From a virus, in IMG/VR virus record IMGVR_UViG_3300044620_001243: DNA of 64,000 bases; one strand, given 5' to 3'. Positions 5,592 through 63,028 of the stretch are shown here, piece by piece. The notes below the pieces were generated by a model. The model did no database searches, was not told where the DNA came from, and worked only from the letters and a program-made list of their open reading frames with translations. Position 1 is the first letter of the stretch. The number at the start of each line of letters is the position of its first letter. Made by a program: the position numbers and the translations under genes.

Positions 5592-5862
5592 AGAAATCAA
5601 AAAAGGAAATCTGAATTACGACGGGTCAGGTAGAGCATACCCTGATAATCCACAAATAAAAGAAAATTGGGATTGTATTTGGGAAAATAATGGTAAACAT
5701 TATATGCTAGTTGGTAGTGATGAACACAAGAAGTGGGAAATTTACTTGGGTGAAATGATTAATGTTTGGATTGAACGTCGTGGGTATCTTGATTTTGATA
5801 CTGATGAACAGGAGATTATTGATTTTTACAATAAGACACAACAAAACAATAGAAAGTTATGA
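5584..5862 (+). CDS. hypothetical protein (junction-motif family)
   Basis: 92 aa. The 3' end carries the same AAAACAATAGAAAGTTATGAA junction. Confidence 0.4.
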   Translation: MNKEIKKGNLNYDGSGRAYPDNPQIKENWDCIWENNGKHYMLVGSDEHKKWEIYLGEMINVWIERRGYLDFDTDEQEIIDFYNKTQQNNRKL

Positions 5863-8526: not shown

Positions 8527-9099
8527 ATGAGTTTAACAAATTACGCAAAAAAAGAATTACAGACCGCCGGTTTCTTTGATGAAGATTCCGATTACGGGGG
8601 TTTAATTGGAGAGGCTGTAATGGAACTTATTGAAGTGTTCGATAAACAAGGACACTCGGGTATGTCTGCTCCTTATGTTGCTTCAATCTTTAACAAACTT
8701 GCCAACTTTGAACCTTTACTACCTATTACAGGTAAAGATGAAGAATGGGGAGATGTTAAGGATTTGGAAAGTGGAAAACCTTGGTATCAAAACAGGAGAT
8801 GTTCTGCTTTATTTAAAGATGGGAAGGATGGAAAACCCTACTTCATACACGCAATTATTAAAAGAGACCAAAATGGGAGTTGTTGGAGTGGAATGGCGTG
8901 GTTAAATGAAGAAGATTACAAATCAGGCGATAGAAGTAAAATGGTTGGAAAGAAGGGGTATGTTAAATCATTTCCTTTTGTTCCTAAAACATTTTACATT
9001 GATGTTAAGGATGTTGAGGTAGGAAAAGATGATTGGGAATCATTTGTTGTCGACCCATCACAATTGGAAGAGGTGTGGGAGTATTATGATAAGGATTAA
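8527..9099 (+). CDS. hypothetical protein
   Basis: 190-aa ORF. Confidence 0.4.
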   Translation: MSLTNYAKKELQTAGFFDEDSDYGGLIGEAVMELIEVFDKQGHSGMSAPYVASIFNKLANFEPLLPITGKDEEWGDVKDLESGKPWYQNRRCSALFKDGKDGKPYFIHAIIKRDQNGSCWSGMAWLNEEDYKSGDRSKMVGKKGYVKSFPFVPKTFYIDVKDVEVGKDDWESFVVDPSQLEEVWEYYDKD

Positions 9100-27872: not shown

Positions 27873-28574
27873 ATGAAAGTAGAATCGTTGTTTTTATCTG
27901 ACATTCATTTGGGTTCAAAAGGTTCCAATTCAGATTTAGTTCTTAAAATATTAAAAAAATATGAACCCGAATATCTTTTTTTAGTTGGGGATATTATAGA
28001 CGGTTGGTTATTGAAAAGAAGATTTAGGTGGAAACAATCTGATACAAATGTTATAAGAAAAATTCTTTCATATTCAAAAAATGGAACAAAGGTAATTTAC
28101 ATAACTGGTAATCATGATGATTTTTTAAGAGAATATGGTGATTTAAATTTTGGTAATATTGAAATTTGTTTAGAATATAAATATAAAAATATTTTTATAA
28201 CCCATGGTGATTTATATGATGGAGTTATAAAATTAAAATGGTTGGGCGTGTTAGGTTCTTTTGGATACGATTTAGCAATTTCAATCGATAGATTTTTAAA
28301 AAAAATTGGATATAAACGTTCATTGTCTAAATTCTTAAAAGATAAAGTAAAAGAGGCGGTAAAATTTATAACCAGTTTTGAAAATGAATTAGTTAGACAA
28401 GCGAAAAAAAGAGAGTGTGATGTGGTGATTTGTGGACACATTCACAACCCCGAAGATAAAACAATTAATAATGTTCGTTATTTAAATTGTGGGGATTGGA
28501 TTGAAAACAACACATACATTACTTTTGATAAAAATATATTCAAAATTAATTATATTAAAAATGAAATACCTTAA
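27873..28574 (+). CDS. calcineurin-like metallophosphoesterase (LpxH-like)
   Basis: FLSDIHLG, LVGDIIDG, GNHDDF and THGD motifs. Confidence 0.7.
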   Translation: MKVESLFLSDIHLGSKGSNSDLVLKILKKYEPEYLFLVGDIIDGWLLKRRFRWKQSDTNVIRKILSYSKNGTKVIYITGNHDDFLREYGDLNFGNIEICLEYKYKNIFITHGDLYDGVIKLKWLGVLGSFGYDLAISIDRFLKKIGYKRSLSKFLKDKVKEAVKFITSFENELVRQAKKRECDVVICGHIHNPEDKTINNVRYLNCGDWIENNTYITFDKNIFKINYIKNEIP

Positions 28575-32067: not shown

Positions 32068-33363
32068 ATGTCTAAATACAAACCCATAGGGATTACACCC
32101 AAAGAAAAAGCAGACCAGTTGTTAGAATCTGTTATGTTTAGTCTAAATAAACAATTTGACCCAAACACAGGTGAATATCAACCAATCCCAACCAACCCGC
32201 ATTATAAAGAATGCGCATTAGCAATTGTAAACGAAATCTTTGAGTTTATTAAAAAAGATGATTTAGATTCCGAAACGGCGTATTGGGCAAATCATCCTAT
32301 TTCTAATTTTTGGGTTGAAGTTGAACGTGAAATTAAAAAACAAATGAATTTGATTCAAATTTTAGAGAATTATTTTCAAAAAGGTTGGTTGATTAAACAA
32401 ACTCACCCAACTTTACCTCTGACAATTTGGAATTATTCCCAAACAACCCAATACGAGGGTAGGTGGGATGAAATAACCCTCATGTGTAGAGGTTTGGTTA
32501 CAGATGATGATGGAAATATTGTTGCCAGACCTTTCAAGAAGTTTTTCAATTTAGAAGAGGGAAAACACACACCAACCTCAGAATTCGAAGTATATGAAAA
32601 GATGGATGGTTCTTTGGGTATTTTCTTTTATTATCAGGAGCAACCCGTTTTTGCATCCAGAGGTTCTTTCACTTCCGACCAAGCCATCAAAGGAAGAACT
32701 CTTTTAGATAAGTATAATTGGCAAGGTGGAACTTACCCTGGCTACACTTACCTATTTGAGATTCTTTACCCGGAAAATCGGATAGTAGTAAATTACGGTG
32801 ATTTAGAAGAACTGGTTGTTTTGGGTGTGCTCAATACCCAAACTGGAGAAGAGTGTGATTTTTCAGAAATGAAAAACGAAGGATTCGTTCTAGTTAAAAA
32901 ATACGATGGAGTTAAAGACTATACCAAATTAAAGAGTATGATTTTTAACAATCAAGAAGGGTTTGTTGTAAAGTTTTCAAACGGAAATAGGGTAAAAATC
33001 AAAGGAGAAGAATACTTGCGTCTTCATAAGATTATGACTGAAGTTTCGACTAAATCTGTTTGGGAGATTTTATCCAATGGTGATAATATGGAAGAGATAC
33101 TCAGAGATGTTCCTGATGAATTTTTTGATAAGGTCAAGGAATATGAAACAGAACTTGTTTCTAAATTTGATGATATAAAGAATGAATACACTTGGATTTA
33201 TAAAGTTTTAGAAAGAAACGAGGAAATTTCAGAAAATAGAGCTATCTTTGCCCAATACGCTAAAAGATACAAACACCCATCCATTTTATTTGGTCTATTG
33301 GACGGTAAAAATATAGACCCTATGATTTGGAAAATAATACAACCCGAATATAAAAAACTATGA
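32068..33363 (+). CDS. ATP-dependent RNA ligase (nucleotidyltransferase motif I KxDGS)
   Basis: EVYEKMDGSLGIFF is the ligase adenylation motif I. Its size and its position next to the phosphatase and kinase genes suggest a T4 RnlA-like tRNA repair ligase. Confidence 0.55.
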   Translation: MSKYKPIGITPKEKADQLLESVMFSLNKQFDPNTGEYQPIPTNPHYKECALAIVNEIFEFIKKDDLDSETAYWANHPISNFWVEVEREIKKQMNLIQILENYFQKGWLIKQTHPTLPLTIWNYSQTTQYEGRWDEITLMCRGLVTDDDGNIVARPFKKFFNLEEGKHTPTSEFEVYEKMDGSLGIFFYYQEQPVFASRGSFTSDQAIKGRTLLDKYNWQGGTYPGYTYLFEILYPENRIVVNYGDLEELVVLGVLNTQTGEECDFSEMKNEGFVLVKKYDGVKDYTKLKSMIFNNQEGFVVKFSNGNRVKIKGEEYLRLHKIMTEVSTKSVWEILSNGDNMEEILRDVPDEFFDKVKEYETELVSKFDDIKNEYTWIYKVLERNEEISENRAIFAQYAKRYKHPSILFGLLDGKNIDPMIWKIIQPEYKKL

Positions 33364-33773
33364 AATACTCAATTTACTTAGATGATGTGAGGACACCCAT
33401 TCCGGGTAATATAGACTGGATTGTTGTCAGAAGCTACGACGAGTTTGTGAGTAAAGTCACCCAAATCGGTCTTGACAACATAGACCTTATTTCCCTCGAC
33501 CATGACCTTGGCGACTCTGCTATGAAGGAGTGGCACACAAATGTCTATCACAACTACACGCTGGATTACAACAACATTACAGAAAAAACAGGTATGGACT
33601 GTGCAAAATGGTTGGTTAATCAGTGGCTGGACGGTGCTCCCGTGGTGAAAGTTATGGTTCATTCTGCAAACGCTATCGGCTCGGCTAATATGATGGGTTA
33701 CATCAACAATTACAAGCATGTGCATAGAATGATACAAGATTGCCAAAGGTGGGTAGTTCCACACACGGTTTGA
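33360..33773 (+). CDS. hypothetical protein (GC-richer, possibly receiver-like fold)
   Basis: 137-aa ORF whose GC content is noticeably higher than the surrounding sequence. Confidence 0.35.
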   Translation: MKYSIYLDDVRTPIPGNIDWIVVRSYDEFVSKVTQIGLDNIDLISLDHDLGDSAMKEWHTNVYHNYTLDYNNITEKTGMDCAKWLVNQWLDGAPVVKVMVHSANAIGSANMMGYINNYKHVHRMIQDCQRWVVPHTV

Positions 33774-34725: not shown

Positions 34726-35382
34726 ATGAAACTAATTTTAGAAAAAGACCAAAGATTATTTTTTACTAGTGATACCCACTACAATCACTCTAATATTTGT
34801 AGGGCAACTACAAAATGGGAGGACAGTTATGATGCCACTCGTGATTTTAAATCTTTAAGTCACATGAACGACAGTATTGTTCAGAATATTAATGATTTGG
34901 TAAAAGAAAATGATGTTTTAATCCACATGGGAGATTGGTCATGGGGTGGATTTGAATATATTGAAGAATTTCGAAAAAGGATTGTTTGTAAAAACGTTCA
35001 CTTAGTTTTTGGAAACCATGATGAACATATTAAAAAAAATACAGAAAACATTCAAGATATATTCACATCAACTCATGATTATTTACATTTGGATGTTAGA
35101 CAACCTTCCTCAACCAACAAAGGGTCAGTAAATAAGTTTGAATTTATTTGTATGCACTATCCTATTGCTAGTTGGGATGGTTTGTACCACGGTACAATTC
35201 ATTTACATGGTCACACACATCTAACTCCTAACTCTAGAATTTCACAAGGAAAAGCAATGGATGTTGGTGTAGATGGTAACGAGTATAAACCTTTACTTAT
35301 GCAAGAGATTATTGTTATCATGGGAAATAGAGAAATAAATCACCTTTGTTTACCAAAAGACCGTAACGAAAAAAGAATTTGA
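34726..35382 (+). CDS. metallophosphatase (polynucleotide 3'-phosphatase-like)
   Basis: Calcineurin-like motifs (DTHYNH, GDWSWGG, GNHDEH, GHTH). It is adjacent to and overlaps the kinase gene. Confidence 0.55.
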   Translation: MKLILEKDQRLFFTSDTHYNHSNICRATTKWEDSYDATRDFKSLSHMNDSIVQNINDLVKENDVLIHMGDWSWGGFEYIEEFRKRIVCKNVHLVFGNHDEHIKKNTENIQDIFTSTHDYLHLDVRQPSSTNKGSVNKFEFICMHYPIASWDGLYHGTIHLHGHTHLTPNSRISQGKAMDVGVDGNEYKPLLMQEIIVIMGNREINHLCLPKDRNEKRI

Positions 35383-35783
35383 AAATTATGAAAAATCTAA
35401 TATTATTAAGGGGTTTACCTGGTTCGGGAAAATCGACAGTCGCAAAAATGTTGGTCAACAAAGACTACTGTCATAAAGAAGCAGATATGTTTTTCGTCGA
35501 CAGAGAAGGCAACTATAAGTTCGAGCCGTCGAAAATCAAAGACGCACACGCTTGGTGCCAAGAAGAAGTTGAGTTCTTGTTGAGACTCGAACACACGCCG
35601 GTGGTTGTTTCCAACACATTCACACAAGAATGGGAGATGGAAGCTTATTATAAGTTGGCCAAAGATTACGGTTACACAGTTTTCTCATTGATTGTTGAAA
35701 ACCGACACGGCGGAAGGAATATTCACGGTGTTCCTGATGATAAGTTAGAAATTATGAAAAACAGATTTGAAATAAAATTATGA
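35379..35783 (+). CDS. P-loop polynucleotide kinase-like protein
   Basis: Walker A LRGLPGSGKST. 134 aa. ATGA overlap with the phosphatase gene. Confidence 0.55.
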   Translation: MKIMKNLILLRGLPGSGKSTVAKMLVNKDYCHKEADMFFVDREGNYKFEPSKIKDAHAWCQEEVEFLLRLEHTPVVVSNTFTQEWEMEAYYKLAKDYGYTVFSLIVENRHGGRNIHGVPDDKLEIMKNRFEIKL

Positions 35784-39550: not shown

Positions 39551-39577
39551 GGGAAGAATTGTCTTCCCTTTTTTTTG
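39551..39577 (+). terminator. rho-independent terminator
   Basis: GGGAAGA-ATTG-TCTTCCC hairpin followed by T9. Confidence 0.8.
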
Positions 39578-39613
39578 TTTGGTATTTTAAAATTTATTTC
39601 GTATATTTACACT
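39578..39613 (+). promoter_or_regulatory. Bacteroidetes-type promoter (TTTG-N20-TATATTTA; extended TTCGTATATTTACACTAT)
   Basis: Sits just after the terminator and just before ATG 39614. Confidence 0.5.
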
Positions 39614-40333
39614 ATGAAAACCGTATTCATCGGCGATATTCACGGACGTTCCATTTGGAAAGAAATTGTAGAACAGGAAAAACCTGATAGGGTTATTTTT
39701 GTCGGAGACTATTTCGACTCACTTGATATTCCAGGTATTGACCAAATTCATAATTTTAAAGAAATCATTCACCACAAAAAAACAAGTGGAATTGAGGTTG
39801 TACTGTTGGTAGGTAATCACGATTATCATTATATGGATATGGGTGAAACTTACAGTGGATTTCAACCTGCTCTAAAATTTGATATTGGGCAGTTACTCAA
39901 AGAAAATATGGAACATTTACAAATGGCACATTCATTTGATAATTTCCTTTGCACCCACGCTGGTGTATCTTCGGTGTTTATGAATGATAATTTTAGAGAT
40001 AGTTGGGATTGCGATAATTTAGTTGAAAAACTGAATGAAACATTTAAATATTCTCCATTCATTTTTAAGTTCAATGGTTTTAATCCATATGGGGATAATG
40101 AAACACAATCACCTATTTGGATTAGGTTGAATTCATTGAGAAGTTCAAATAACAAACGAGGTAAAGATGGAATTAAAAAGCAATTTATTCAAGTGTTTGG
40201 ACACACCCAAGTTAAAGAAATTGATTTGGTTGGAATGGCGAAATTTTTAGGTGGTAGATATATTATGATTGATGCTTTACCATCCCGTCAATACCTAATT
40301 TACAATGGAGAAATTAAAGTAGGAAAAGTGTAA
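39614..40333 (+). CDS. Ser/Thr protein phosphatase-family metallophosphoesterase
   Basis: VFIGDIHGR, FVGDYFD and GNHD. Start moved to the ATG at 39614, downstream of the promoter box. Confidence 0.7.
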   Translation: MKTVFIGDIHGRSIWKEIVEQEKPDRVIFVGDYFDSLDIPGIDQIHNFKEIIHHKKTSGIEVVLLVGNHDYHYMDMGETYSGFQPALKFDIGQLLKENMEHLQMAHSFDNFLCTHAGVSSVFMNDNFRDSWDCDNLVEKLNETFKYSPFIFKFNGFNPYGDNETQSPIWIRLNSLRSSNNKRGKDGIKKQFIQVFGHTQVKEIDLVGMAKFLGGRYIMIDALPSRQYLIYNGEIKVGKV

Positions 40334-41579: not shown

Positions 41580-41587
41580 GTGGAATA

Positions 41588-41725
41588 GTCAGATGGCGAA
41601 ATGTAGCCGCTATTTGGGTAAAACAGTTTAACACGAGACGCGAACCTCACACAAAGCCTGATAATAACCAAATGAAAGTGCGAAGTACAGTAACACTTAT
41701 ACGGGTTCGACTCCCGTTCTGACTG
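41588..41725 (+). tRNA. diverged tRNA-like unit (acceptor AGTCAGA/TCTGACT, T-arm ACGGGTTCGACTCCCGT; non-canonical core)
   Basis: Same architecture as the 44.8-48.2 kb family but diverged in sequence. No canonical anticodon arm was found. Confidence 0.4.
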
Positions 41726-44653: not shown

Positions 44654-44727
44654 AGCGGGGTGGTGGCAGATGGTAGCCCGCCAGGCTCATAACCTGGAGG
44701 TCGTAGGTTCGAGTCCTACCCCCGCAA
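44654..44727 (+). tRNA. tRNA-Met (CAT); 1:72 A:A mismatch, could be an initiator or a tRNA-Ile2-type
   Basis: Anticodon stem CCAGG/CCTGG with loop CTCATAA. T-arm GTAGG-TTCGAGT-CCTAC. Acceptor AGCGGGG/CCCCGCA. Promoter box TATATTTG at 44620. Confidence 0.8.
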
Positions 44728-44791
44728 CCGTATAGTTTTTGTTCTTTGACATCTTGGGAATTAAAAGTAAAAGTCGAGAGACTTAAAAATT

Positions 44792-44901
44792 AGTCAGGTG
44801 GCGGAATTGGTAGACGCAAGTGAGAATAGTAATTGCGCTGATGTAGCGGCAGATGCAGTAAGTTATTATTCATACAGGTTCGAGTCCTGTCCTGACTACC
44901 A
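44792..44901 (+). tRNA. tRNA-like unit 1 (Leu-type scaffold, 56-nt variable core, CCA encoded)
   Basis: 5' AGTCAGGTGGCGGAATTGGTAGACGC … ACAGGTTCGAGTCCTGTCCTGACTACCA 3'. Acceptor strands are complementary. No canonical anticodon arm was found. Confidence 0.5.
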
Positions 44902-44992
44902 AAGAAACAAGTAAAACGCAAACGCACAGTCCCTTGATGCATCAGGTGAGGCGCACACTGTATACTGGATGACCTCTGTTTCTTTTTTAATC
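44902..44992 (+). repeat. 91-nt spacer, identical copy at 45370-45460
   Basis: Exact duplicate following the two CCA-encoding units 1 and 3. It contains an AGAAACA…TGTTTCT helix followed by a T-run (terminator-like). Confidence 0.7.
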
Positions 44993-45101
44993 AGTCAGGT
45001 GGCGGAATTGGATAGACGCATTGAGGAATCTAAACTTGGTAGCATTTGTTAGATTTAATAGTAATCCTCCTTCCTTACAGGTTCGACTCCTGTCCTGACT
45101 A
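44993..45101 (+). tRNA. tRNA-like unit 2 (variable core 57 nt)
   Basis: Same conserved flanks. The core has a GAGGA…TCCTC stem enclosing 37 nt. Confidence 0.5.
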
Positions 45102-45267
45102 CGACAGTTAGCAGATAATACTTGGTAGTTCTTGTAACGTCTGACTATGCGTGAGGTGGTTTTATAACTTTCCACCAGCTGGTCCAAAACTAAAAGTTAA
45201 TACAGGTTTAATAACGGGGTGAAGGAAAGTCTAACTAACAAGTACTTCACTACCTACTGTAAAAATT

Positions 45268-45369
45268 AGTCAGGTGACGAAATTGGTAGACGTGCCACGA
45301 ATAAAACTAAGTGGTGGAGAAACAGCTTTCAGGCACTCCATACAGGTTCGAGTCCTGTCCTGACTACCA
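45268..45369 (+). tRNA. tRNA-like unit 3 (CCA encoded; compensatory D-stem A10:T25)
   Basis: D-stem ACG/CGT versus GCG/CGC in the other units. Followed by the same 91-nt spacer as unit 1. Confidence 0.5.
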
Positions 45370-45460
45370 AAGAAACAAGTAAAACGCAAACGCACAGTCC
45401 CTTGATGCATCAGGTGAGGCGCACACTGTATACTGGATGACCTCTGTTTCTTTTTTAATC

Positions 45461-45558
45461 AGTCAGGTGGCGGAATGGTAGACGCACTGGACAGGCGATG
45501 CATTTAAAACAGAAATAAGCCCAGTCGGTACTTACAGGTTCGAATCCTGTCCTGACTA
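45461..45558 (+). tRNA. tRNA-like unit 4
   Basis: Conserved flanks. The core has an ACTGG…CCAGT stem with a 30-nt loop. Confidence 0.5.
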
Positions 45559-45926
45559 CAAATCTTAGGAGTAATTAACCTAAGACTGAGAGGTTCGAAA
45601 CTCTCGATTGGCTATGGTGTAATGGGCACAGAGAAACGGAGTACGAAAGGGGTTACGGGAATTTTCCCGCAAACATCAGAAACGGGACTCAGGATTATGG
45701 TTCGAATCCATATTAGTCAACAAGCCGTCTTTTTTTCTTGTCCGCCGTGGACGTGGATTGTTGAGACGTAAAAGTAACAATCGATTGATTAGAGAACGGT
45801 AGGATACAGGTTCACTAGACGAAGGTAGAAGTTTTTTTTTGATAGATGGGTTTGAGTTCTTTATAACAACAAACCAACTATAATTCAGTAGGGACAAATG
45901 GGAGCGGCTTACTCCAGTCCCGAAAT

Positions 45927-46085
45927 AGTCAGGTGGCGGAATTGGTAGACGCTATGAAATCATGTTTTAAGATTGAACGGGTAGGCAGACGTAACATATA
46001 GGTAAAAGAGTGTTATCGCCGAATACACTTATAAGGGTCCTATGAAAAAACTTCAATCATACAGGTTCAAGTCCTGTCCTGACTA
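45927..46085 (+). tRNA. tRNA-like unit 5 (110-nt core)
   Basis: Conserved flanks with T-arm ACAGGTTCAAGTCCTGT. The very long core suggests an insertion or intron. Confidence 0.45.
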
Positions 46086-46328
46086 CACGTTCCGAAACAG
46101 ACAACGGATAGTTCCACTATGAACGATGAGAAACAGGGTGATGTCCTGTATTAGTTATCGCCTCCCGAATGCGGTCGGGATAGGTTGACCACCTAAACAT
46201 CAGCAATGTGAACGGTCTATTTCTAACTCACCTACGTTTGTAAGACAACATAGAAGTGACGAGACGGGAAACTCGTCGTGAGGACATCCAAGACACCTGT
46301 AAGTTGGATAAATTAGGGTGTTATTTTT

Positions 46329-46451
46329 AGTCAGGTGTGGGTAAAAATGCGCTAACTGGAAACCCACTGAAAGCGAAAGCAAAGTCGAGGTCTAAATGCG
46401 CACTATGGCCGAGGTAATGGCGAGATACAGGTTCAAGTCCTGTCCTGACTA
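46329..46451 (+). tRNA. tRNA-like unit 6 (altered D region)
   Basis: Acceptor AGTCAGG/CCTGACT and T-arm conserved. The D region is replaced by TGGG…CCCA. Confidence 0.4.
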
Positions 46452-46596
46452 CAAAGACAATGGTTTTCCCCATTCAACGGATGTCGACAATCCAGAATGG
46501 AATCGGAATTCAGCACCCTCAGCCGAGGCGCCTCGTAAAACTACGATTAAGCTGTTAAGATTGGAGCGAGACGGGTACTCCATCATTGTCTTATTT

Positions 46597-46668
46597 GGTC
46601 GGTTCATCTAGAGGTTAGGATACAAGATTTTCATTCTTGTCACATGGGTTCGATTCCCATACCGACTA
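46597..46668 (+). tRNA. tRNA-Glu (TTC)
   Basis: Clean cloverleaf. Acceptor GGTCGGT/ACCGACT, D GGAT-loop-ATCT, anticodon stem CAAGA/TCTTG with loop TTTTCAT, T-arm ATGGG-TTCGATT-CCCAT. 72 nt. Confidence 0.8.
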
Positions 46669-46833
46669 CCTTGGAGGTATAGGGGTAAACCCTTGAGGCG
46701 AAGTACAAGCCATAGTCACTGAACTTAAACTGACCTCCAACCAAATTAGAAGTGTCGCAATACGCGTTTCAATCTAATTGATAGACGTATCAATGAAGAT
46801 GTTCGAGGGTGAAAATCCCAAGCTTCTAATCCT

Positions 46834-46938
46834 CCATTCTTAGTGTTATGTGGTTAAAACACGTTAACTCTTACATCGCCTGATTAGCGCTAATCCGAAT
46901 GTAAGACGAGTAAGTTGGTTCGAATCCAACAGAATGGA
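46834..46938 (+). tRNA. tRNA-like gene with distinct acceptor (CCATTCT/AGAATGG), canonical D and T arms, and a 26-nt insertion inside a TCTTAC/GTAAGA helix (possible intron-containing tRNA)
   Basis: D-arm GTGT-loop-ACAC and T-arm GTTGG-TTCGAAT-CCAAC. The core is too long for a type I tRNA and the anticodon is unresolved. Confidence 0.45.
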
Positions 46939-47216
46939 CAATGAGTAAGAGATACTCAGAGTCTTTGGTCTAAGACTTAAACAATAGACTCGCAGAATGT
47001 CTACGGCGTGAGTGGGACATCATGGGAACAAAGAAGAGTCACACACCTTCTCCCAGTAGTGTTGACAGGTTTTTATGTGGTAAGACACTAATGAAAAAGA
47101 CTCGTTCTATGGGGTACTTATCTGGAGTATCAAACAAGTGTGAGTGATATGGTTCTCGAACAGACAGAGAAACCCGTTAAAATCTACCCGTCTGGAATCT
47201 CAGGATGGGGAAACAT

Positions 47217-47319
47217 AGTCAGGTGGCGGAGTGGGCTAACGCTAACTTGGAAGAGTCTGAGGAGTGGTAACCAAGTACCTATACTCTGATGACCGCAGGT
47301 TCGAATCCTGTCCTGACTA
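47217..47319 (+). tRNA. tRNA-like unit 7
   Basis: Conserved flanks (D-loop variant AGTGGGCTAA, T-stem GCAGG). The core has a CTTGG…CCAAG stem. Confidence 0.45.
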
Positions 47320-47337
47320 CAAAAATAAATTAAAATT

Positions 47338-47598
47338 ATGTTTATAGAAAGATTTTTTAACCCCTATGTGTCATCTCACGAAAGGGTATTATATGAGAAT
47401 AAAGAAGCAATTGAACATTGTTTGAAATATCATACATGGATTAGACATTATTCATTTGAAGGTGATGAATATATCAAAAATGTTAATGGTAAATTAGTTT
47501 GGAATGATGGTAGTAAAGTTGATAAAAGAAAATTACCTAAAAAAGGAAAAGGATGGGGCAGATATTCAAGTGAACTTTATAATTTGTGTTCTTTTTAA
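47338..47598 (+). CDS. small hypothetical protein embedded in tRNA island
   Basis: 86-aa ORF that exactly fills the gap between units 7 and 8. Confidence 0.35.
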   Translation: MFIERFFNPYVSSHERVLYENKEAIEHCLKYHTWIRHYSFEGDEYIKNVNGKLVWNDGSKVDKRKLPKKGKGWGRYSSELYNLCSF

Positions 47599-47605
47599 AT
47601 TAAAT

Positions 47606-47751
47606 AGTCAGGTGGCGGAATTGGTTAGACGCTGTAAAAGTAAGATATGGGAATTGTGCACTCGGTAAACCTACGCACAAGGCTTAGATAGTTGTGCAAC
47701 AGCGGAAAGTCTTACAAAACTATCTTACAGGTTCGAATCCTGTCCTGACTG
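47606..47751 (+). tRNA. tRNA-like unit 8 (95-nt core closed by 8-bp GTAAGATA/TATCTTAC helix; discriminator G)
   Basis: Conserved flanks. The self-contained closing helix suggests an inserted element or intron. Confidence 0.45.
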
Positions 47752-47906
47752 CAAAATTAAAGATATGTTTAGAACATTAAATTATATTTGGAAATTGTTT
47801 TGGAAAAGACCTAGTAGAAGAGTATTTTTTATATTTTTTAGAATGCTAAAAACGGAAATTAAGTGTTTAATGTTGACTGGATACTCAACAGATGAATTAC
47901 TAAATT

Positions 47907-48033
47907 AGTCAGGTGGCGGAATTGGTAGACGCACGATTTATTGTTTAACGATGTGGCTCAATGTCCTAATGGATGAGAGAAAATAAACAGAGAAATATAC
48001 CACATACAGGTTCGAATCCTGTCCTGACTACCA
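47907..48033 (+). tRNA. tRNA-like unit 9 (CCA encoded)
   Basis: Conserved flanks with a 73-nt core. Confidence 0.45.
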
Positions 48034-48085
48034 AGTTAACCCACTAAGACTAGAAACGGGTGACACCTCGGAAAGACGAGGACAT

Positions 48086-48170
48086 AGTCAGGTGGCGGAA
48101 TGGATAGACGCGGCCCTATCAGGGGTAGAGGCGAAAGAAACTCATACAGGTTCGAATCCTGTCCTGACTA
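48086..48170 (+). tRNA. tRNA-like unit 10 (85 nt, type-II length)
   Basis: Conserved flanks. The 34-nt core forms CCCT-ATC-AGGG and GAG…CTC minihairpins but no 7-nt anticodon loop. Confidence 0.45.
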
Positions 48171-48278: not shown

Positions 48279-48352
48279 GACCTCATAGCTTAATTGGTAA
48301 AGCACCTGGCTTTTAACCAGGGGAGTCCAGAGTTCGAGTCTCGGTGGGGTCA
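48279..48352 (+). tRNA. tRNA-Lys (TTT)
   Basis: Acceptor GACCTCA/TGGGGTC, D GCTT-AATTGGTA-AAGC, anticodon stem CCTGG/CCAGG with loop CTTTTAA, T-loop TTCGAGT. Confidence 0.85.
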
Positions 48353-48553
48353 CAAAGGTTGATTGGGGAATGATGGTGACAAAGACTTGAGAGTTTATGC
48401 CGGTCGTTACCATCGGAGTTGGGAGGTATAAACCTAAGCAATGCCAATCGTAAAAGGAGTTGTCCACTCGACCATCTTCTCCTTTCCTTTTTTTTAAAAA
48501 AATTCTTAAAGACACATTTTGGTTTTATCATTTTACTTTTGTATATTTTACAT

Positions 48554-53524: not shown

Positions 53525-54256
53525 ATGGATAAAGATAAATTAAAAAATATCATTACCAGAATTGGTCAAATAAATCCAAAATATGAATTGGAAAATATTC
53601 TGCCTCAATCGCCAAAATTAATTAAATTAATGCCTAAATTAATTCAACTCATGGGTGACCCATTAGAAGATGCTCAATTGGCTGCAGTTAAAAAAGATGG
53701 TTTAACAATCGAATATATCGTTAAAGGTGGAATCACCCCATCAGAAGATGTTCAATTGGCTGCAGTTAACGAAAATGGTTATGCAATCCAATATATCATT
53801 AATGGTGGAATCGTCCCATCAGAAGGTGTTCAATTGGCTGCAGTTAACAAAAAGGGTTATGCAATCTCAAATATCATTAAAGGTGGAATCGTCCCATCAG
53901 AAGATGTTCAATTGGCCGCAGTTAACGAAGAGGGTTATGCAATAGGATATATCATTGATGGTGGAATCGTCCCATCAGAAGGTGTTCAATTGGCCGCAGT
54001 TAATAATAATGGTTATGCAATCCAACATATCATTAATGGTGGAATCGTTCCATCAGAAGGTGTTCAATTGGCCGCAGTTAACAAAAAGGGTTTATCAATC
54101 GAATATATCATTGATGCCGGAATCATTCCATCAGAAGATGTTCAATTTGGAGCAGTTAATTATAATGGTTTATCAATCCAATATATCATTGATGCTGGAA
54201 TCACCCCATCAGAACGTGTAAAAGAACTTGCTCGTTCCAAGGGTGTTCAAATATAA
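53525..54256 (+). CDS. DUF4116-like repeat protein (paralog 1 of 3)
   Basis: N-terminus MDKDKLKNIITRIGQINPKYELENI, then about eight 24-aa repeats (GI(T/V)PSEDVQLAAVNxNGYAIQYII). C-terminus SERVKELARSKGV. Confidence 0.5.
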   Translation: MDKDKLKNIITRIGQINPKYELENILPQSPKLIKLMPKLIQLMGDPLEDAQLAAVKKDGLTIEYIVKGGITPSEDVQLAAVNENGYAIQYIINGGIVPSEGVQLAAVNKKGYAISNIIKGGIVPSEDVQLAAVNEEGYAIGYIIDGGIVPSEGVQLAAVNNNGYAIQHIINGGIVPSEGVQLAAVNKKGLSIEYIIDAGIIPSEDVQFGAVNYNGLSIQYIIDAGITPSERVKELARSKGVQI

Positions 54257-54261
54257 ATAAC

Positions 54262-54897
54262 ATGGATAAAGATAAATTAAAAAATATCATTACCAGAATT
54301 GGTCAAATAAATCCAAAATATGAATTGGAAAATATTCTGCCCCAATCACCAAAATTAATTCAATTCATGGATAATCCATCAGAAGATGTTCAATTGGCCG
54401 CAGTTAAAAAAGATGGTTTAACAATCTATTATATCATTGAAGCCGGAATCGTCCCATCTGAAGATGTTCAATTGGCTGCAGTTAATAATAATGGTTCATC
54501 AATCTATCAAATCATATATGATGCTGGAATCACCCCATCAGAAGATGTTCAATTGGTTGCAGTTAAAAAAGTGGGCGACTTAATCTATGATATCATTAAA
54601 GTCGGAATAACCCCATCAGAAGATGTTCAATTGGCTGCGGTTAATAATAATGGTTCATCAATAGGATATATCATTAACGGTGGAATCACCCCATCAGAAG
54701 ATGTTCAATTGGCCGCTGCTAATCAAAATGGTAGGGTAATCCAATATATCATTAAAGCTGGAATCACCCCATCAGAAGATGTTCAATTGGCCGCAGTTAA
54801 TAATAATGGTTATGCAATCCAACATATCATTAACGCCCGAATCACCCCATCAGAACGTGTAAAAGAACTTGCTCGTTCCAAGGGTGTTAATATATAA
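54262..54897 (+). CDS. DUF4116-like repeat protein (paralog 2)
   Basis: The first 100 or so nt are nearly identical to paralog 1. Same repeat and C-terminal block. Confidence 0.5.
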   Translation: MDKDKLKNIITRIGQINPKYELENILPQSPKLIQFMDNPSEDVQLAAVKKDGLTIYYIIEAGIVPSEDVQLAAVNNNGSSIYQIIYDAGITPSEDVQLVAVKKVGDLIYDIIKVGITPSEDVQLAAVNNNGSSIGYIINGGITPSEDVQLAAANQNGRVIQYIIKAGITPSEDVQLAAVNNNGYAIQHIINARITPSERVKELARSKGVNI

Positions 54898-54902
54898 GTT
54901 AT

Positions 54903-55616
54903 ATGGATAAAGATAAATTAAAAAATATCATTACCAGAATTGGTCAAATAAATCCAAAATATGAATTGGAAAATATTGTGCAGCAAGCGCCACAATTAAT
55001 TCAATTCATGGATAATCCATCTGAAGAAATTCAATTGGCCGCGGTTGAAAAAGATGGTAAATATATAAAAAATATTATTGAAAGTGGAATCAAACCATCA
55101 GAAGATGTTCAATGGACAGCTGTTAATCAAGGTGGTCAGTCACTTTATTTTATCCTTGAAGCCGGAATCGTCCCATCTGAAGATGTTCAGTTGGCAGCGG
55201 TTAGAAGTAGAGGTTCGGCAATCCAATTTATCATTGAAGCTGGAATCATTCCATCAGAAGATGTTCAATGGTTTGCGGTTAACGAAAATGGTTATGTAAT
55301 CCAAGATATCATTGATGCCGGAATCACCCCATCAGAACGTGTTCAATTGGCCACAGTTAATTATAATGGTTTGTTAATCAAATATATCATTGATGTCGGA
55401 ATCACCCCATCAGAACGTGTTCAATTGGCTGCTGTTAATCAAAATGGTTTGTCAATCAAAGATATCATTGAAGCCGGAATCGTCCCATCTGAAGATGTTC
55501 AGTTGACTGCAGTTAGAAGTAGAGGTTCGGCAATCCAATTTATCATTTATAATGGTGGAATCAAACCATCAGAACGTGTAAAAGAACTTGCTCGTTCCAA
55601 GGGTATTAATATATAA
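54903..55616 (+). CDS. DUF4116-like repeat protein (paralog 3)
   Basis: Same N- and C-terminal blocks, with the repeats more diverged. Confidence 0.5.
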   Translation: MDKDKLKNIITRIGQINPKYELENIVQQAPQLIQFMDNPSEEIQLAAVEKDGKYIKNIIESGIKPSEDVQWTAVNQGGQSLYFILEAGIVPSEDVQLAAVRSRGSAIQFIIEAGIIPSEDVQWFAVNENGYVIQDIIDAGITPSERVQLATVNYNGLLIKYIIDVGITPSERVQLAAVNQNGLSIKDIIEAGIVPSEDVQLTAVRSRGSAIQFIIYNGGIKPSERVKELARSKGINI

Positions 55617-55621
55617 ATAAC

Positions 55622-56194
55622 ATGGAAAAAAATCTAAATGAAGAGATTTCAAGAATAAAATCAATAATCAATTTTATGAATGAAAATGAATTGCCCAAAA
55701 ATTCTGGAGACTTAATAAGGATGTTACCTGAAAAGTTAAAAGAATTATTTTTCAATCAATGGAAAGCAAAACAAAACCCAAAATGGCACCCCGAAGGTAA
55801 CACATTGAAACATATTCTTGTTGTAATTAAAAGGGCTTATCATTATTATCCTGATGACCCCAATATGATTATGGCGGCGTTGTTTCATGATTTGGGGAAA
55901 ATTGATACATACAACATTAACCCAAAAACGGGGGAACCAACTGCGTATGGTCATGAGAACAAGTCAGTGCAATATGTGGAAGAATTCAAAGATTGGATTC
56001 AGAGTTTTGAGGGAACGAACGTGGAAGAGATTAAATATTTGGTTAAAAACCATATGAAGGTAAAACCATCCACATGGGACTCAATGAGGGATATTAAGAA
56101 AGAACCGATACAATCACACCCCGCATTTGATAAATTAATGGGTTTTACAAGTAAATTGGATGGTGGGGGGATTAATTTGGAAAAAAATATTTAA
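55622..56194 (+). CDS. HD-domain phosphohydrolase (CCA-enzyme C-terminal-domain-like 2',3'-cyclic phosphodiesterase)
   Basis: KWHPEGNTLKH…LFHDLGK matches the KWHPE…H…HDxGK pattern of the bacterial CCA-adding enzyme HD domain. Confidence 0.5.
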   Translation: MEKNLNEEISRIKSIINFMNENELPKNSGDLIRMLPEKLKELFFNQWKAKQNPKWHPEGNTLKHILVVIKRAYHYYPDDPNMIMAALFHDLGKIDTYNINPKTGEPTAYGHENKSVQYVEEFKDWIQSFEGTNVEEIKYLVKNHMKVKPSTWDSMRDIKKEPIQSHPAFDKLMGFTSKLDGGGINLEKNI

Positions 56195-56830: not shown

Positions 56831-57448
56831 ATGCAAAAAGTTATTTTCTTGGATATTGATGGGGTAATGAACTCACATATTTTCTATGAACAAAGGCATA
56901 GAAAAAGATGGTTGAAATGGAGAACTTATTATTTTTTGATTAGAAGATTTTTGGGGATTAAATCCAAATCCGTGAGTCTTGCTAACCACAAAACACCCAA
57001 ATCCCATTGCACATACCAACACCAATTTAAAAGATTAAAAGAAGAGACTTGTCAGCAAAAATGGAAATGGCTTGCTAATTTCTGCAACGAGACTGGAACT
57101 AAAATTTGTGTATCATCTGTGTGGAGATTTCATTTTGGAAATGAAGAATCGGTTATACCCCTGTGGTGGGAACGAGCACTGATTGATTTGGGTTTCAACG
57201 AAGGAACATTTGTTGGTATCACCGACAGATTGGGAATGAGAGGAGAAGAAATCAAGGATTGGCTTCAAAAAAATCAGGAAGTTCAGGAATATGCAATTTT
57301 AGATGATGACTCTGATATGCTACCTGAACAGATGGATAAATTTTATCATTGTGATGGATATTTTGGTCTTTCTCCCAATCACTTATATCGTATCCAAAGA
57401 GCCTTCTCGGGTAAAAGTAAATATGGACATTTGAATAAAACCGTATAA
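56831..57448 (+). CDS. HAD-like hydrolase
   Basis: VIFLDIDGVMN (motif I) and ILDDDSD (motif IV-like). Confidence 0.45.
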   Translation: MQKVIFLDIDGVMNSHIFYEQRHRKRWLKWRTYYFLIRRFLGIKSKSVSLANHKTPKSHCTYQHQFKRLKEETCQQKWKWLANFCNETGTKICVSSVWRFHFGNEESVIPLWWERALIDLGFNEGTFVGITDRLGMRGEEIKDWLQKNQEVQEYAILDDDSDMLPEQMDKFYHCDGYFGLSPNHLYRIQRAFSGKSKYGHLNKTV

Positions 57449-60947: not shown

Positions 60948-61015
60948 TATTCCAAGAAATCTTTACCCAGATTTGAATCCTATCTTGACAACAAAAAAAA
61001 CAAAAAACAAAACAA

Positions 61016-61222
61016 ATGAAAAACAAAGTTTGGAACAAAACAGTTATTGCAACTGAAGAACAAAACGTAAGCATTTATCCGACAGATGAGTTTGATGGCA
61101 TTATAGTTGAAACAAAAGAGTTGGACGATAAAACATTAAATGGTAAGTTGTATCTTAACAAAGATGAAATGGAACTGTTGATTCAGAAAATGGTGGAAAT
61201 GATGAATTACGTAAAAAGTTAA
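61016..61222 (+). CDS. small hypothetical protein (leader AAAACAAAACAAATG)
   Basis: 68 aa. Preceded by a degenerate tRNA 3'-half remnant (60978-61003) and the conserved leader. Confidence 0.35.
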   Translation: MKNKVWNKTVIATEEQNVSIYPTDEFDGIIVETKELDDKTLNGKLYLNKDEMELLIQKMVEMMNYVKS

Positions 61223-61412
61223 TCGAATCCTGACTGCAAATCAAATCAACTAAAAACAAAACAAATGAAAAATAAGTTAAAAACAATTTGGCATGATTTT
61301 TGGACTGACCCCCTATACTACATTGTAATTATGTCGTATATTGGTTTGCTTTTAATTATGTTAATAGTTAGTGTGGCTTGGTTTATCCAACCTTTAATAA
61401 AATAACAAAACA

Positions 61413-61501
61413 GTCAGGTGGTGGAATTGGTTAGACCGTCCCCTCCCTTAAGTGGAAGGGGGAGACCGAAAGGTATACAGGTTCGAATCCTGTCCTGACT
61501 A
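61413..61501 (+). tRNA. tRNA-like unit a (89 nt; D-stem shifted with compensatory changes)
   Basis: GGTGG/CCGT D-arm variant. The core folds best as a CTCCCTT/AAGGGGG helix with an AAGTGG loop rather than as an anticodon arm. An alternative reading as tRNA-Leu (CUUAAGU loop) would need a mismatch. Confidence 0.45.
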
Positions 61502-61685
61502 CTAAAAATTAAAGAATTATGAAAATAAAAGTACACTTATTAAGTCAATCTAAACCGATTGAATATGAGGATGTGAAAAACGCATACACAAAAAGCGGTT
61601 TGTATTGTGTCTATCTAAAAAACAATCAAGTACACAAATACCCTTTGTGTAATGTATTTAGAATTGAAGAAGATTATTAAAACAT

Positions 61686-61768
61686 AGTCAGGTGGCGAAA
61701 TTGGATAGACGCTAGGGAAACCTTCCCGAGAATGAAAGTTCATATAGGTTCGAGTCCTGTCCTGACAA
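61686..61768 (+). tRNA. tRNA-like unit b (83 nt; A1:A72 mismatch)
   Basis: 3' acceptor CCTGACA. The core has a GGGAA-ACC-TTCCC minihairpin. Confidence 0.4.
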
Positions 61769-61784
61769 CTAAAAATTAAAGAAT

Positions 61785-61967
61785 ATGGAATGGGTTGAAA
61801 TTAAAAATGGAAAACCAAAAGATGGTAGTTGGGTACTAATTCAAAGTTCTTTGAAGAACGTACCGAAATATGAGGTTTGCTATTATGAAAATGATGAATG
61901 GTACATACCTTCGTATAATGATGTATGTGAAGAGAAACATATTATTAAATGGTCGTACATTGAATAA
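61785..61967 (+). CDS. small hypothetical protein
   Basis: 60 aa, lying between units b and c. Confidence 0.35.
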   Translation: MEWVEIKNGKPKDGSWVLIQSSLKNVPKYEVCYYENDEWYIPSYNDVCEEKHIIKWSYIE

Positions 61968-61973
61968 TCAAAC

Positions 61974-62096
61974 AGTCAGGTGGCGGAATTGGTAGACGTA
62001 TAGAGTAGGGAGTAGCACTCCATTTATGGTAAGGCAAGCAAATAAGACCTAACCCTCTAAGGTAGCACCATACAGGTTCGAATCCTGTCCTGACTA
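61974..62096 (+). tRNA. tRNA-like unit c (123 nt)
   Basis: Conserved flanks (D 3' strand CGT). The core contains GGAGT-AGC-ACTCC. Confidence 0.4.
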
Positions 62097-62115
62097 CAAA
62101 CAAACAAAAAAAAAT

Positions 62116-62322
62116 ATGAGTCAATTTATCAACACAAATCACGCAAACGAAGCGGCAAGAGAAGCCTTTCAGGGTTATAGGAAAGACACAGAAAGAATCA
62201 AACAAATCAGACAGATGTTACAGAATGGTGAATCTGTTAGCAATGAAGATATTCTTTGGTTGTGTCAAAGAGCTCAATCAGGCATACTACAAGAAGAATC
62301 AAGTTGGTATGACCACGGATAA
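62116..62322 (+). CDS. small hypothetical protein
   Basis: 68 aa, after an AAACAAACAAAAAAAAATATG leader. Confidence 0.35.
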   Translation: MSQFINTNHANEAAREAFQGYRKDTERIKQIRQMLQNGESVSNEDILWLCQRAQSGILQEESSWYDHG

Positions 62323-62328
62323 AAATAT

Positions 62329-62435
62329 AGTCAGGTGGCGGAATTGGTAGACGCAATAAGGCATGGAAACATGCGCATCATGACGGATTGGTGATATTAG
62401 CCAAAGTTATACAGGTTCGAATCCTGTCCTGACTA
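62329..62435 (+). tRNA. tRNA-like unit d (107 nt)
   Basis: Conserved flanks. The core contains GCATG-GAAAC-ATGC. Confidence 0.4.
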
Positions 62436-62454
62436 CAATAAAAAAACAAAACAA

Positions 62455-62943
62455 ATGAAACTAAATCAAAACTCACTCTCGGCAAAACTCTATCGTTGGT
62501 TCTATAAAACCGACACAATGCCAACCAACCTATGTCCTTACTTTTGGAAACTGGTCACTGCGGTGATTCTTTCACCTTTGCTTGCAATTCACACCCTACC
62601 CTATGAAATCATCAACTACAAACGTCAGCGTTGGGATACATACAGTGATATGCTCGGAATATCGCTTGTTTGTTGGTGCCTTATCGCTGTTGTTATTTGC
62701 ATGATTTCATCATTGGGTCTTTTCTTTTACATCCCTGATAAGGGTTCATCACTTTGGACAATGATGTCAATCGGTCTTATTTGTTGGGGTACCCTTATCC
62801 TAGTTGGCATTACTTGGGCTATTACTAAAACAGTAGTATACTTAAAATCAAAGAAGAGTGATAATGAAAAGACAGACAACATCATCGTTGAAATGGTGAA
62901 AGCAAAGTATCACAAATACTGCCCTAAAATTGATTGGAAGTAA
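62455..62943 (+). CDS. small integral membrane protein
   Basis: 162 aa with 3-4 TM segments. Leader AAAAACAAAACAAATG. Confidence 0.4.
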   Translation: MKLNQNSLSAKLYRWFYKTDTMPTNLCPYFWKLVTAVILSPLLAIHTLPYEIINYKRQRWDTYSDMLGISLVCWCLIAVVICMISSLGLFFYIPDKGSSLWTMMSIGLICWGTLILVGITWAITKTVVYLKSKKSDNEKTDNIIVEMVKAKYHKYCPKIDWK

Positions 62944-62950
62944 AACAAAT

Positions 62951-63028
62951 AGTCAGGTGGCGGAATGGTAACGCAGCTCGCGGTGTACACAAAGGGGTGA
63001 ATTGCAGGTTCGAATCCTGTCCTGACTA
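62951..63028 (+). tRNA. tRNA-like unit e (78 nt)
   Basis: Conserved flanks (D-loop AATGGTAA, T-stem GCAGG) with a 29-nt core. Confidence 0.4.

Follow-up and report, generated by a model that had tools for sequence, protein, structure and literature searches.

Phage-encoded tRNA-like units with a covarying core and hypervariable middles

The window analysed here is a 64,000-nucleotide (nt) stretch of the IMG/VR virus record IMGVR_UViG_3300044620_001243, and the element in question is a repeated tRNA-like unit that occurs in it 16 times. The sequence is AT-rich (G+C content of about 30%), has nearly all of its genes on the + strand and probably comes from a phage infecting Bacteroidota; the nearest relatives of its helicase are found in Bacteroides, Chryseobacterium and Flavobacterium phages. 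The same 16 units, all of them on the + strand, emerge from a search by pattern, from a custom scan for cloverleaves and from a covariance model: one at 41587, ten in 44792-48170 and five in 61412-63028. Their common scaffold consists of the acceptor stem AGTCAGG/CCTGACT and the T arm ACAGG-TTCGAAT-CCTGT, after which come A73 and C74, and the usual D arm is UGGCGGAAUUGGUAGACGC. The stretch between the D and T arms measures 27-108 nt and shows no relation between copies; the total length ranges from 78 to 159 nt. The units are the following (ORF, open reading frame):

41587..41725, + strand: outlying unit, 139 nt; the changes in its acceptor stem (AGTCAGA/TCTGACT) and its T stem (ACGGG/CCCGT) are compensated
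44792..44898, + strand: unit of 107 nt, consensus scaffold
44993..45101, + strand: unit of 109 nt
45268..45366, + strand: unit 3, 99 nt, 72.0 bits with covariance model R1; the unit singled out in a first-pass annotation of this DNA
45461..45558, + strand: unit of 98 nt, 43.9 bits with the Rfam tRNA model
45927..46085, + strand: unit of 159 nt, with the longest insert of the window
46329..46451, + strand: unit with a longer hairpin, GUGGG...CCCAC, in place of the D arm
47217..47319, + strand: unit carrying the alternative Levitt pair, G15 and C48; the related contig L011 has an identical copy
47606..47751, + strand: unit of 146 nt, not in L011; the insertion boundary lies within the conserved ends
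47907..48030, + strand: unit of 124 nt
48086..48170, + strand: unit of 85 nt, called "tRNA-Pro(agg)" by ARAGORN, with a non-canonical stem-loop
61412..61501, + strand: "unit a" of the first-pass annotation, D stem GUGG/CCGU, starting 6 nt past an ORF stop codon
61686..61768, + strand: unit of 83 nt, between two small ORFs
61974..62096, + strand: "unit c" of the first-pass annotation, with G10:U25
62329..62435, + strand: unit of 107 nt, between two small ORFs
62951..63028, + strand: shortest unit, 78 nt

At the site of the 46329..46451 unit, contig L011 has another unit. The 3' end of unit 3 is ACAGGTTCGAGTCCTGTCCTGACTA, at 45342-45366, and its first 26 nucleotides (45268-45293) are AGTCAGGTGACGAAATTGGTAGACGT, with ACG at tRNA positions 10-12 (45277-45279) and CGT at positions 23-25 (45291-45293). 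The first-pass annotation had read this as a G:C to A:T covariation in the D stem relative to the other units, and rightly: ten of the 16 units have GCG...CGC in the same register, making this a true double change from G10:C25 to A10:U25. The G10:U25 pair proposed for unit c is also there (GCG...CGT). For unit a, GTGG AATTGGTTAGA CCGT had been read as a shifted helix preserved by G:U pairs. A helix with G:U pairs is indeed kept in that register (G:U, U:G, G:C and G:C, with a D loop one nt longer); the register itself is ambiguous, as RNAfold gives a GGU/ACC pairing instead. The window alone contains a single double change, which is weak evidence when taken alone, so that a larger alignment has to decide.

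Further copies were collected from viral contigs by scans with the exact 3'-end and the exact 5'-end patterns, each giving at least 120 matches. Combined, the two scans returned more than 260 viral loci and about 400 units, which is a lower bound, with unit lengths of about 53 to 190 nt across the family. For the D stem we used a permutation test in which the same partner search was made on a unit's own sequence and on the sequences of other units (168 distinct 5' ends, 2000 permutations). A triplet other than GCG occupies positions 10-12 in 46 of the 168 distinct 5' ends. Thirty-six of these 46 have a full partner of three base pairs (bp) in their own sequence, against 24.1 +/- 2.5 in the permutations (maximum 34); with Watson-Crick pairs only, 21 of the 46 are partnered, against 7.3 +/- 2.3 (maximum 15). 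In a covariance-model alignment of 145 distinct copies 99% of the cells are paired, a figure that falls to 31-38% when the partner columns are slid. The changes in this alignment comprise AU (5), CG (1) and GU (10) at pair 10:25, UA (10) and UG (5) at pair 11:24, and AU (3), UA (2), UG (2), CG (1) and GU (7) at pair 12:23, with two to five unpaired cells per pair. Double-change cells number 27, compared with 2.9 +/- 1.5 after shuffling, and none of 500 shuffles reached the observed value. The covariance-model alignment is fitted to the structure and thus biased towards it, a bias that the permutation test does not share; a whole-unit MAFFT alignment mis-registers the 3' strand of the D stem, and the other two approaches were used instead for that reason.

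Compensation extends to the other helices. Among units anchored by their 5' end, the T stem ACAGG/CCTGT is replaced by GATGG/CCATC, GTAGG/CCTAC, GCTGG/CCAGC, GCTTG/CAAGC, GTGGG/CCCAC or ACGGG/CCCGT, and nearly all variants of the acceptor 3' strand are wobble-compatible. The acceptor stem covaries at G2:C71 (to A:U), C4:G69 (to U:A) and G6:C67 (to U:A). The tertiary Levitt pair 15:48 covaries (Fisher p=5e-12): 249 units have A15-U48, ten have G15-C48 and one has G15-U48. The ten G15-C48 units have differing middles and D arms and so do not go back to a single inherited event. G:U wobbles are frequent among the changes, and such pairs form on the + (transcribed) strand only. The window also contains two degenerate copies and one element of the same build with other stems:

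60967..60992, + strand: decayed remnant of a unit 3' end, CCAGATTTGAATCCTATCTTGACAAC, with the T stem broken and the 5' half absent
61223..61239, + strand: second remnant of a unit 3' end, with an internal deletion, TCGAATCC-TGACTGC
46834..46938, + strand: long tRNA-like element of the same build, 105 nt, acceptor stem CCATTCT/AGAATGG, T stem GTTGG/CCAAC

The first remnant carries six uncompensated mismatches, which break three of the five T-stem pairs; the leader that follows the second is the leader that follows an intact unit in contig L071. Since the element at 46834-46938 has different acceptor and T stems, the long tRNA-like design is not restricted to the AGUCAGG scaffold. When we asked in the larger alignment whether pairing is broken as often as it is kept, the outcome was the opposite of decay: pairing is kept by compensation. 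The view of the first-pass annotation that these are functional folded RNAs and not decaying pseudogenes is thus borne out by the D, T and acceptor stems and the 15:48 pair, all of which covary, and by true remnants that look different; selection on a tRNA-like fold is supported. In five contigs (L156, L158, L161, L169 and L197) the 3' strand of the acceptor stem is split after the T arm by an insertion of 50-85 nt, which includes a hairpin whose loop reads UAGAAAU and, in some contigs, also a Bacteroidota-type promoter motif, TAnnTTTG.

Compared feature by feature with a tRNA, the units keep the core and lose the anticodon arm. Their 5' and 3' ends form a 7-bp acceptor stem, in which 99.2% of the cells pair, with A73 in 89%; the D arm covaries in three pairs and has G18G19 in 87%; the T arm is a covarying 5-bp stem with the canonical UUCRANY loop in 97%; and a purine at position 15 faces a pyrimidine at 48, which is U48 in 93%. 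The retention of acceptor stem, D arm, T arm and tertiary core (U8, A14, A15-U48, G18G19 and the T loop) points to an L-shaped fold. In most units the place of the anticodon arm lacks a 5-bp stem with a 7-nt loop. One to three hairpins, unrelated in sequence and from 27 to about 170 nt long, stand in for the anticodon and variable arms; we call this stretch the payload. Folds constrained by the core give one hairpin in the middle of 32 units, two in 38 and three to four in eight. The last hairpin is often separated from the T stem by no more than a 2-nt linker whose final base is U48, a layout known from class II variable arms, and some units have just 4-11 nt at the site of the anticodon arm.

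Three canonical tRNA genes, found by both ARAGORN and Rfam, accompany the central group of units:

44654..44729, + strand: tRNA-Met, at the head of the RNA cluster
46597..46670, + strand: tRNA-Glu(UUC), within the cluster
48279..48353, + strand: tRNA-Lys(UUU), at the cluster end

The Rfam tRNA model (RF00005, gathering threshold 29 bits) passes ten of the 16 window units, at 33-47 bits, and leaves six below, compared with 59-62 bits for the tRNA-Glu and tRNA-Lys genes. ARAGORN reports just three of the 16, as Pro(AGG), Leu(UAA) and Gly(ACC), and accepts 48 of 180 units, or 56 of 243 (23-27%), across the family, with anticodons scattered over many amino acids. Among the 56 accepted units, 12 have an unassignable anticodon ("???"), and several loops are abnormal in size. 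The call "Leu(taa)" belongs to the 61412 unit, whose supposed anticodon stem has about 8 bp and a 6-nt loop, and which we therefore regard as non-decoding. Nor is a leucine anticodon in a canonical arm a feature of the family, 10 of the 243 units being called Leu; the same phages encode canonical tRNA-Leu(UAA/UAG) separately, in genes whose anticodon arms are normal and whose acceptor stems differ from that of the units. An intron reading was tried and rejected: ARAGORN with introns of 10-130 nt made more calls without a coherent identity, and Rfam found no group I or bulge-helix-bulge features in the units. Transfer-messenger RNA (tmRNA), from which the units differ in both identity and content, was rejected as well, as ARAGORN and Rfam find none in the window and pair 3:70 of the units is U:A and not G:U. 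"tRNA-like" is consequently the right term, and the units are almost certainly not ordinary decoding tRNAs, a point absent from the first-pass annotation.

The unit flanks agree with the flanks of 408 canonical tRNAs that were predicted in these loci:

U at -1: units 75%, canonical tRNAs 71%
C74: units 97%, canonical tRNAs 91%
C75: units 6%, canonical tRNAs 1%
A76: units 73%, canonical tRNAs 77%

A complete CCA is encoded in only eight of 243 units. The 408 canonical tRNAs of these phages nearly never encode it either, and have C74, then A or U at 75, and A76, an unusual and uniform 3' trailer signature. A U at -1 favours bacterial RNase P, and the units lie inside phage tRNA arrays that include tmRNA genes. 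From these signals the units would enter the normal tRNA pathway, with a 5' cut by RNase P, 3' trimming and CCA addition. The identity retained appears to be that of leucine. U8, A14, A15, G18G19, U48 and A73 occur all together in 139 of 238 distinct units (58%), each alone in 87-93%, and most units have the D arm UGGCGGAAUUGGUAGACGC, which presumably matches that of tRNA-Leu. The leucyl-tRNA synthetase (LeuRS) of E. coli needs A73, the A15-U48 pair, G18G19 and interactions of the D loop with the T loop, and the anticodon and the long variable arm are dispensable for charging, variants without both arms still being charged (PMC9976931). As the units keep what LeuRS reads and replace what it ignores, leucylation of the units is plausible.

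The arrangement of the units relative to genes is regular. Between 61.2 and 63.1 kb the order ORF stop codon, 5-7 nt, unit, 16-19 nt, ATG is repeated five times in a row; over the loci as a whole, an ORF stop codon precedes 118 of 390 units by less than 15 nt, and 100 of 369 have an ATG 10-30 nt downstream. With this pattern, excision of the units would cut operons into single-gene messenger RNAs with short A-rich leaders. Compared with contigs L011 and L206 the window is a mosaic, whose breakpoints sit at a conserved end, 5' or 3', of a unit. In one example, 47728-47933, the 3' end of one unit is joined to the 5' end of the next, and in another, breakpoints at 62005 and 62437 bracket a replaced segment. 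Breakpoints at unit ends suggest that the conserved ends act as homology arms for the gain, loss and exchange of payloads and small-gene cassettes.

The payloads have a G+C content of 42%, compared with about 30% for the genome. The clearest case of a shared payload is marked by the motif CCTCCCCAAGGTTGAG, present in 59 viral contigs, in about 47 of them within tRNA-shaped units. Its core, CACCUCCCCAAGGUUGAG...CUCUUUAUGGCAAAG, is invariant across 20 distinct members and has no anticodon-like loop, and the scaffold around it changes with compensation throughout: the acceptor stem from AGUCAGG/CCUGACU to AAUUAUG/CAUAAUU or AAUCAUG/CAUGAUU, the T stem from ACAGG/CCUGU to AUUGG/CCAAU, the D stem through four pair types at 10:25, and the payload-closing stem too. 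Other small payload clusters have compensated hairpins and conserved loops, with a diverging D arm. In the shortest window unit, at 62951, the insert is kept in contigs L138 and L320 as the D stem goes from GCG/CGC to GCA/UGC; a payload scan for this unit added only one further contig. We read the payload as the working part in at least some classes. The invariant-core class is also of note in its own right, being a tRNA-shaped RNA of about 100 nt on two unrelated acceptor/T scaffolds; its loci include L275, L278, L286, L296, L297, L299, L300, L307 and about 39 others, and its CACCUCC stretch presumably recalls the 3' end of 16S ribosomal RNA.

Outside viral contigs the family is rare. A scan of 185,579 bacterial and archaeal species, one genome each, gave only 33 matches, nearly all in short contigs of metagenome-assembled genomes, mostly labelled Bacteroidota, with the same unit type. 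A host tRNA origin was considered and discarded, since none of the 33 is a host tRNA-Leu gene. The unit family was not found in the cultured phages of GenBank, and megablast of 40-50 kb gave no match there. A search for distant cultured phages with the RNA cluster gave, among the 25 of 152 records listed, matches to tRNA-Met and one 244-nt match, which overlaps the small ORF 47338-47598. Short-query matches in Tenacibaculum phage pT24 and the crAss-like cr4_1 turned out to be other tRNA-like 3' ends, from a different family. In phage pT24 (L121) the annotation "tRNA-Undet" is given to two nearly identical genes of 79 nt (5790-5868 and 6157-6235), which have normal acceptor, D and T arms and an odd, extended anticodon region, a case of a non-canonical tRNA-like gene in a cultured phage. 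Rfam 15, at gathering thresholds and at E<=1, matched the units with tRNA only and has no specific model for them, and on 18 related loci it found only tRNA, tmRNA and one group I intron. The tmRNA genes of these phage clusters lie at L010 7609-8193, L074 4975-5349 and L089 553-939, and in L010 a group I intron (97.8 bits) is directly beside or overlaps the tmRNA match. A full-text literature search found no description of the unit family, which apparently has not been described before.

Taken together, these observations make it reasonably probable that the units are tRNA-shaped non-coding RNAs of phages, derived from a class II (leucine-type) tRNA, matured by the host and carrying variable functional inserts. 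Units would be co-transcribed with the adjoining tRNAs or small phage genes, their 5' ends would be released by host RNase P, and their 3' ends would be finished by host 3'-processing enzymes and the CCA-adding enzyme, as for the adjoining canonical tRNAs. They would then accumulate as stable RNAs that work through the variable arm, to which a protein or an RNA would bind, and the tRNA body would supply processing, stability and possibly leucylation. Excision would at the same time split polycistronic transcripts, and the conserved ends of about 26 nt would serve as homology arms by which payloads and small-gene cassettes are swapped between phages.

Several points weigh against this interpretation. 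The middles of 186 of 243 units have no detectable similarity to any other, which limits the evidence for selection on the payload to a minority of them. Payload folding barely beats that of shuffled sequences (mean z -0.31; 22% below -1), and the units match no Rfam family besides tRNA. The 16 window payloads, searched by blastn-short on both window strands for antisense targets, gave only chance-level matches of at most 12 nt, and an all-against-all clustering of ORFs in 120 loci, made for a partner protein, produced no family in more than 15 loci. As the searches used exact patterns from the unit ends, part of the near-identity that acceptor and T sequences show across many phages is artefactual, and all that is said on maturation is drawn from sequence signals. 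Some 70-nt copies have a canonical UUU anticodon arm, and such a minority may be real tRNAs.

The other genes of the window bear on what the units might do. Genes for RNA repair are scattered over it in the PHROGs and Pfam scans (27873-28574, 32068-33363, 33360-33773, 34726-35382, 35379-35783, 39575-40333, 55622-56194 and 56831-57448), and the set includes three calcineurin-like metallophosphoesterases. The assigned members, and a further gene, are:

32068-33363: Rnl1-type RNA ligase
33360-33773: cREC_REC cyclic-phosphate domain
35379-35783: AAA_33 polynucleotide kinase (PNK)-like P-loop kinase
55622-56194: HD domain
56831-57448: HAD_SAK_2 domain
8527-9099: ORF for Tad3, an inhibitor of Type I Thoeris (anti-Thoeris; Pfam match E=6e-38)

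Judged from the Tad3 match, the phage is equipped with known anti-defence genes. Together with the RNA-repair set this indicates a phage invested in RNA conflicts, which makes a counter-defence role of the units no more than conceivable. No Ro60/TROVE gene was found among about 58 window ORFs scanned with PHROGs or Pfam. Elsewhere in the window, three tandem paralogous ORFs (243, 211 and 237 amino acids) at 53525-55616 have DUF4116 and DRTGG-like matches, and several proteins with MORN repeats have their genes at 33973, 37007 and 57468. Between the units, a 94-nt element is repeated after the first and third units of the central group (44899-44992 and 45367-45460); its long-range stem, AAAGAAACAG...CUGUUUCUUU, precedes a U run, and the element could be a terminator or another structured RNA. 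The long spacers at 45559-45926, 46086-46328, 46452-46596, 46671-46833 and 46939-47216 are poor in ORFs and have a G+C content of about 39-40%, compared with about 30%; contig L011 matches parts of this region (45533-45933 and 46427-46988) at 89-96% identity, and although Rfam has no match there, the spacers may hold more non-coding RNAs. For an ORF of 68 amino acids at 61016-61222, homologues at the nucleotide level are present in at least seven further contigs with units (L071, at 90%, L032, L061, L118, L172, L174 and L208), and in L071 it is directly downstream of a unit.

A stronger version of the preferred interpretation, which we advance tentatively as one possibility, is that in Bacteroidota phages the family forms a library, shuffled by recombination, of natural leucine-type tRNA-scaffold RNAs, with a body that is processed, tailed with CCA and perhaps leucylated by the host, and with hundreds of interchangeable structured arms that are effectors (decoys, sponges or aptamers) against host factors. 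If this were true, the arms could be part of a phage counter-defence together with the RNA-repair genes, the family would be to RNA what the hypervariable islands of anti-defence proteins in phages are to protein, and it would provide a natural precedent for the engineered tRNA scaffold.

Rather unlikely, in our estimate, is that the scaffold alone matters, the units being punctuation for RNase P and 3' processing in polycistronic transcripts, as well as homology blocks, and the middle a tolerated filler. The constant distances from stop codon to unit and from unit to ATG are what punctuation would predict, and the gap from a unit to the following ATG is too short to fit a promoter. The placement of recombination breakpoints at the conserved ends, the preservation of unit 3'-end remnants ahead of leaders, and payloads that are mostly singletons with a weak thermodynamic signal fit this account as well. 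It has difficulty, however, with the ten units crowded into 3.6 kb (44.6-48.4 kb), where only one ORF of at least 70 amino acids (47338-47598) lies off the RNA genes. Filler should moreover shrink, yet inserts exceed 100 nt, and at least one payload class is invariant on diverged scaffolds, with compensatory changes in several others.

We regard it as improbable that the units are decoys, tRNA bodies made in large numbers to soak up host toxins or sensors directed at the elbow or the acceptor end of tRNA. Many copies of one scaffold sequence would suit a bait, and the window has a full RNA-repair kit that decoys would complement, the anti-Thoeris gene Tad3, and tRNA-Lys, tRNA-Glu and tRNA-Met. 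Most known anticodon nucleases, however, require the anticodon loop, which is the very part missing in the units; decoys also leave the conserved payload classes unexplained, and no defence system was linked to the units in the data examined.

Still less credence can be given to real decoding tRNAs that have very long variable arms or removable intervening sequences, perhaps joined by the phage ligase and end-healing enzymes. The setting in tRNA clusters with tRNA-type flanks, the ten window units above the Rfam threshold, the few short copies with canonical anticodon arms and the RNA ligase, kinase and phosphoesterases encoded in the window are all compatible with it. Set against these are the lack in most units of a 5-bp stem with a 7-nt loop, the scattered identities given by the intron mode, the lack of group I or bulge-helix-bulge features, a conserved payload class without an anticodon-like loop, and the separate canonical tRNA-Leu genes. 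Decaying tRNA pseudogenes, or a selfish tRNA-derived repeat resembling miniature inverted-repeat transposable elements or short interspersed nuclear elements and having no function as RNA, would account for the many copies per genome, the truncated remnants and the copies elsewhere with insertions in the acceptor 3' strand, but are hardly credible given secondary and tertiary pairs compensated over hundreds of copies, all of them on the transcribed strand, and true remnants unlike the intact copies.

The nearest precedent for host-matured, tRNA-shaped RNAs with variable inserts is provided by the species 1 and 2 RNAs of phage T4 (rnaC and rnaD), which are, like the units, small stable RNAs within a phage tRNA cluster. 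The 139-nt rnaC has a tRNA-type T arm, CCGGGUUCGAAUCCCGG, and a short terminal stem at its 3' end, with a long structured middle. The likeness of rnaC to the units is one of architecture, and T4 is not among the 25 of 152 cluster-matching phage records listed. The T4 RNAs differ in being present in one copy each, in lacking a clear 7-bp acceptor stem or D arm and hypervariable cassettes, and in belonging to another host lineage. Their biological role is unexplained (PMC3014915). The bacterial Y RNA YrlA, a partner of Ro60, is a modular non-coding RNA too; its tRNA-like domain comprises a T arm, a D arm and an acceptor-like stem, phages as well as bacteria have it, and it is associated with loci for RNA repair (PMC4201824, PMC7824862). 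Its termini, however, are in the Ro-binding stem and its acceptor-like stem is closed, whereas the termini of the units are at the acceptor stem; for this reason, and as no Rfam Y RNA model matched and the roughly 58 ORFs scanned include no Ro60 gene, identity with Y RNA or YrlA was rejected.

Other likenesses concern the use of a tRNA body and not descent. Both the aminoacylatable 3' tRNA-like structures of plant viruses and the tRNA punctuation of mitochondria place a tRNA shape directly after an ORF, as the units do, to be read by RNase P, the CCA-adding enzyme and a synthetase, and in mitochondria excision separates cistrons; the resemblance is in the mode of working, not in ancestry. The plant virus structures are pseudoknotted mimics that end an RNA genome, whereas the units are DNA-encoded cloverleaf cores, internal to transcripts and with variable inserts. 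In the engineered tRNA scaffold a module replaces the anticodon arm, as in the units, and tRNA enzymes process and stabilise the unrelated RNA, as is proposed for the units; the scaffold is man-made, whereas the units are natural, bacterial-viral and present in hundreds of variants. The tRNA-microRNA units of murine gammaherpesvirus 68 likewise use a tRNA body as a handle for an unrelated RNA module, but there the cargo is downstream of the tRNA and not inside it, and eukaryotic RNA polymerase III and tRNase Z are needed. As borders of cassettes, the units resemble the PeSL cassettes of T4-type phages and the attC sites of integrons, in which short, conserved and partly palindromic borders that vary in length flank small accessory genes of hyperplastic regions and mark breakpoints. 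A PeSL, however, is a promoter plus stem-loop and attC is an integrase substrate, whereas the borders of the units are tRNA-shaped RNAs with G:U and tertiary covariation, for which no dedicated recombinase was identified. What is new relative to the known tRNA-like RNAs of phages is the behaviour as hypervariable cassettes and the retained set of leucine identity elements.

The units also matter for the annotation of phage genomes. Because tRNA finders call some of them tRNAs with odd anticodons (Pro-AGG, Gly-ACC and Leu-UAA here), counts of phage tRNAs, and the inferences on codon usage made from them, are inflated. The puzzle of the T4 species 1 and 2 RNAs is fifty years old, and the unit family offers hundreds of variants on one scaffold. 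With payload classes that can be modelled, clear unit boundaries and a defined host group, it makes the role of tRNA-like phage RNAs experimentally approachable.

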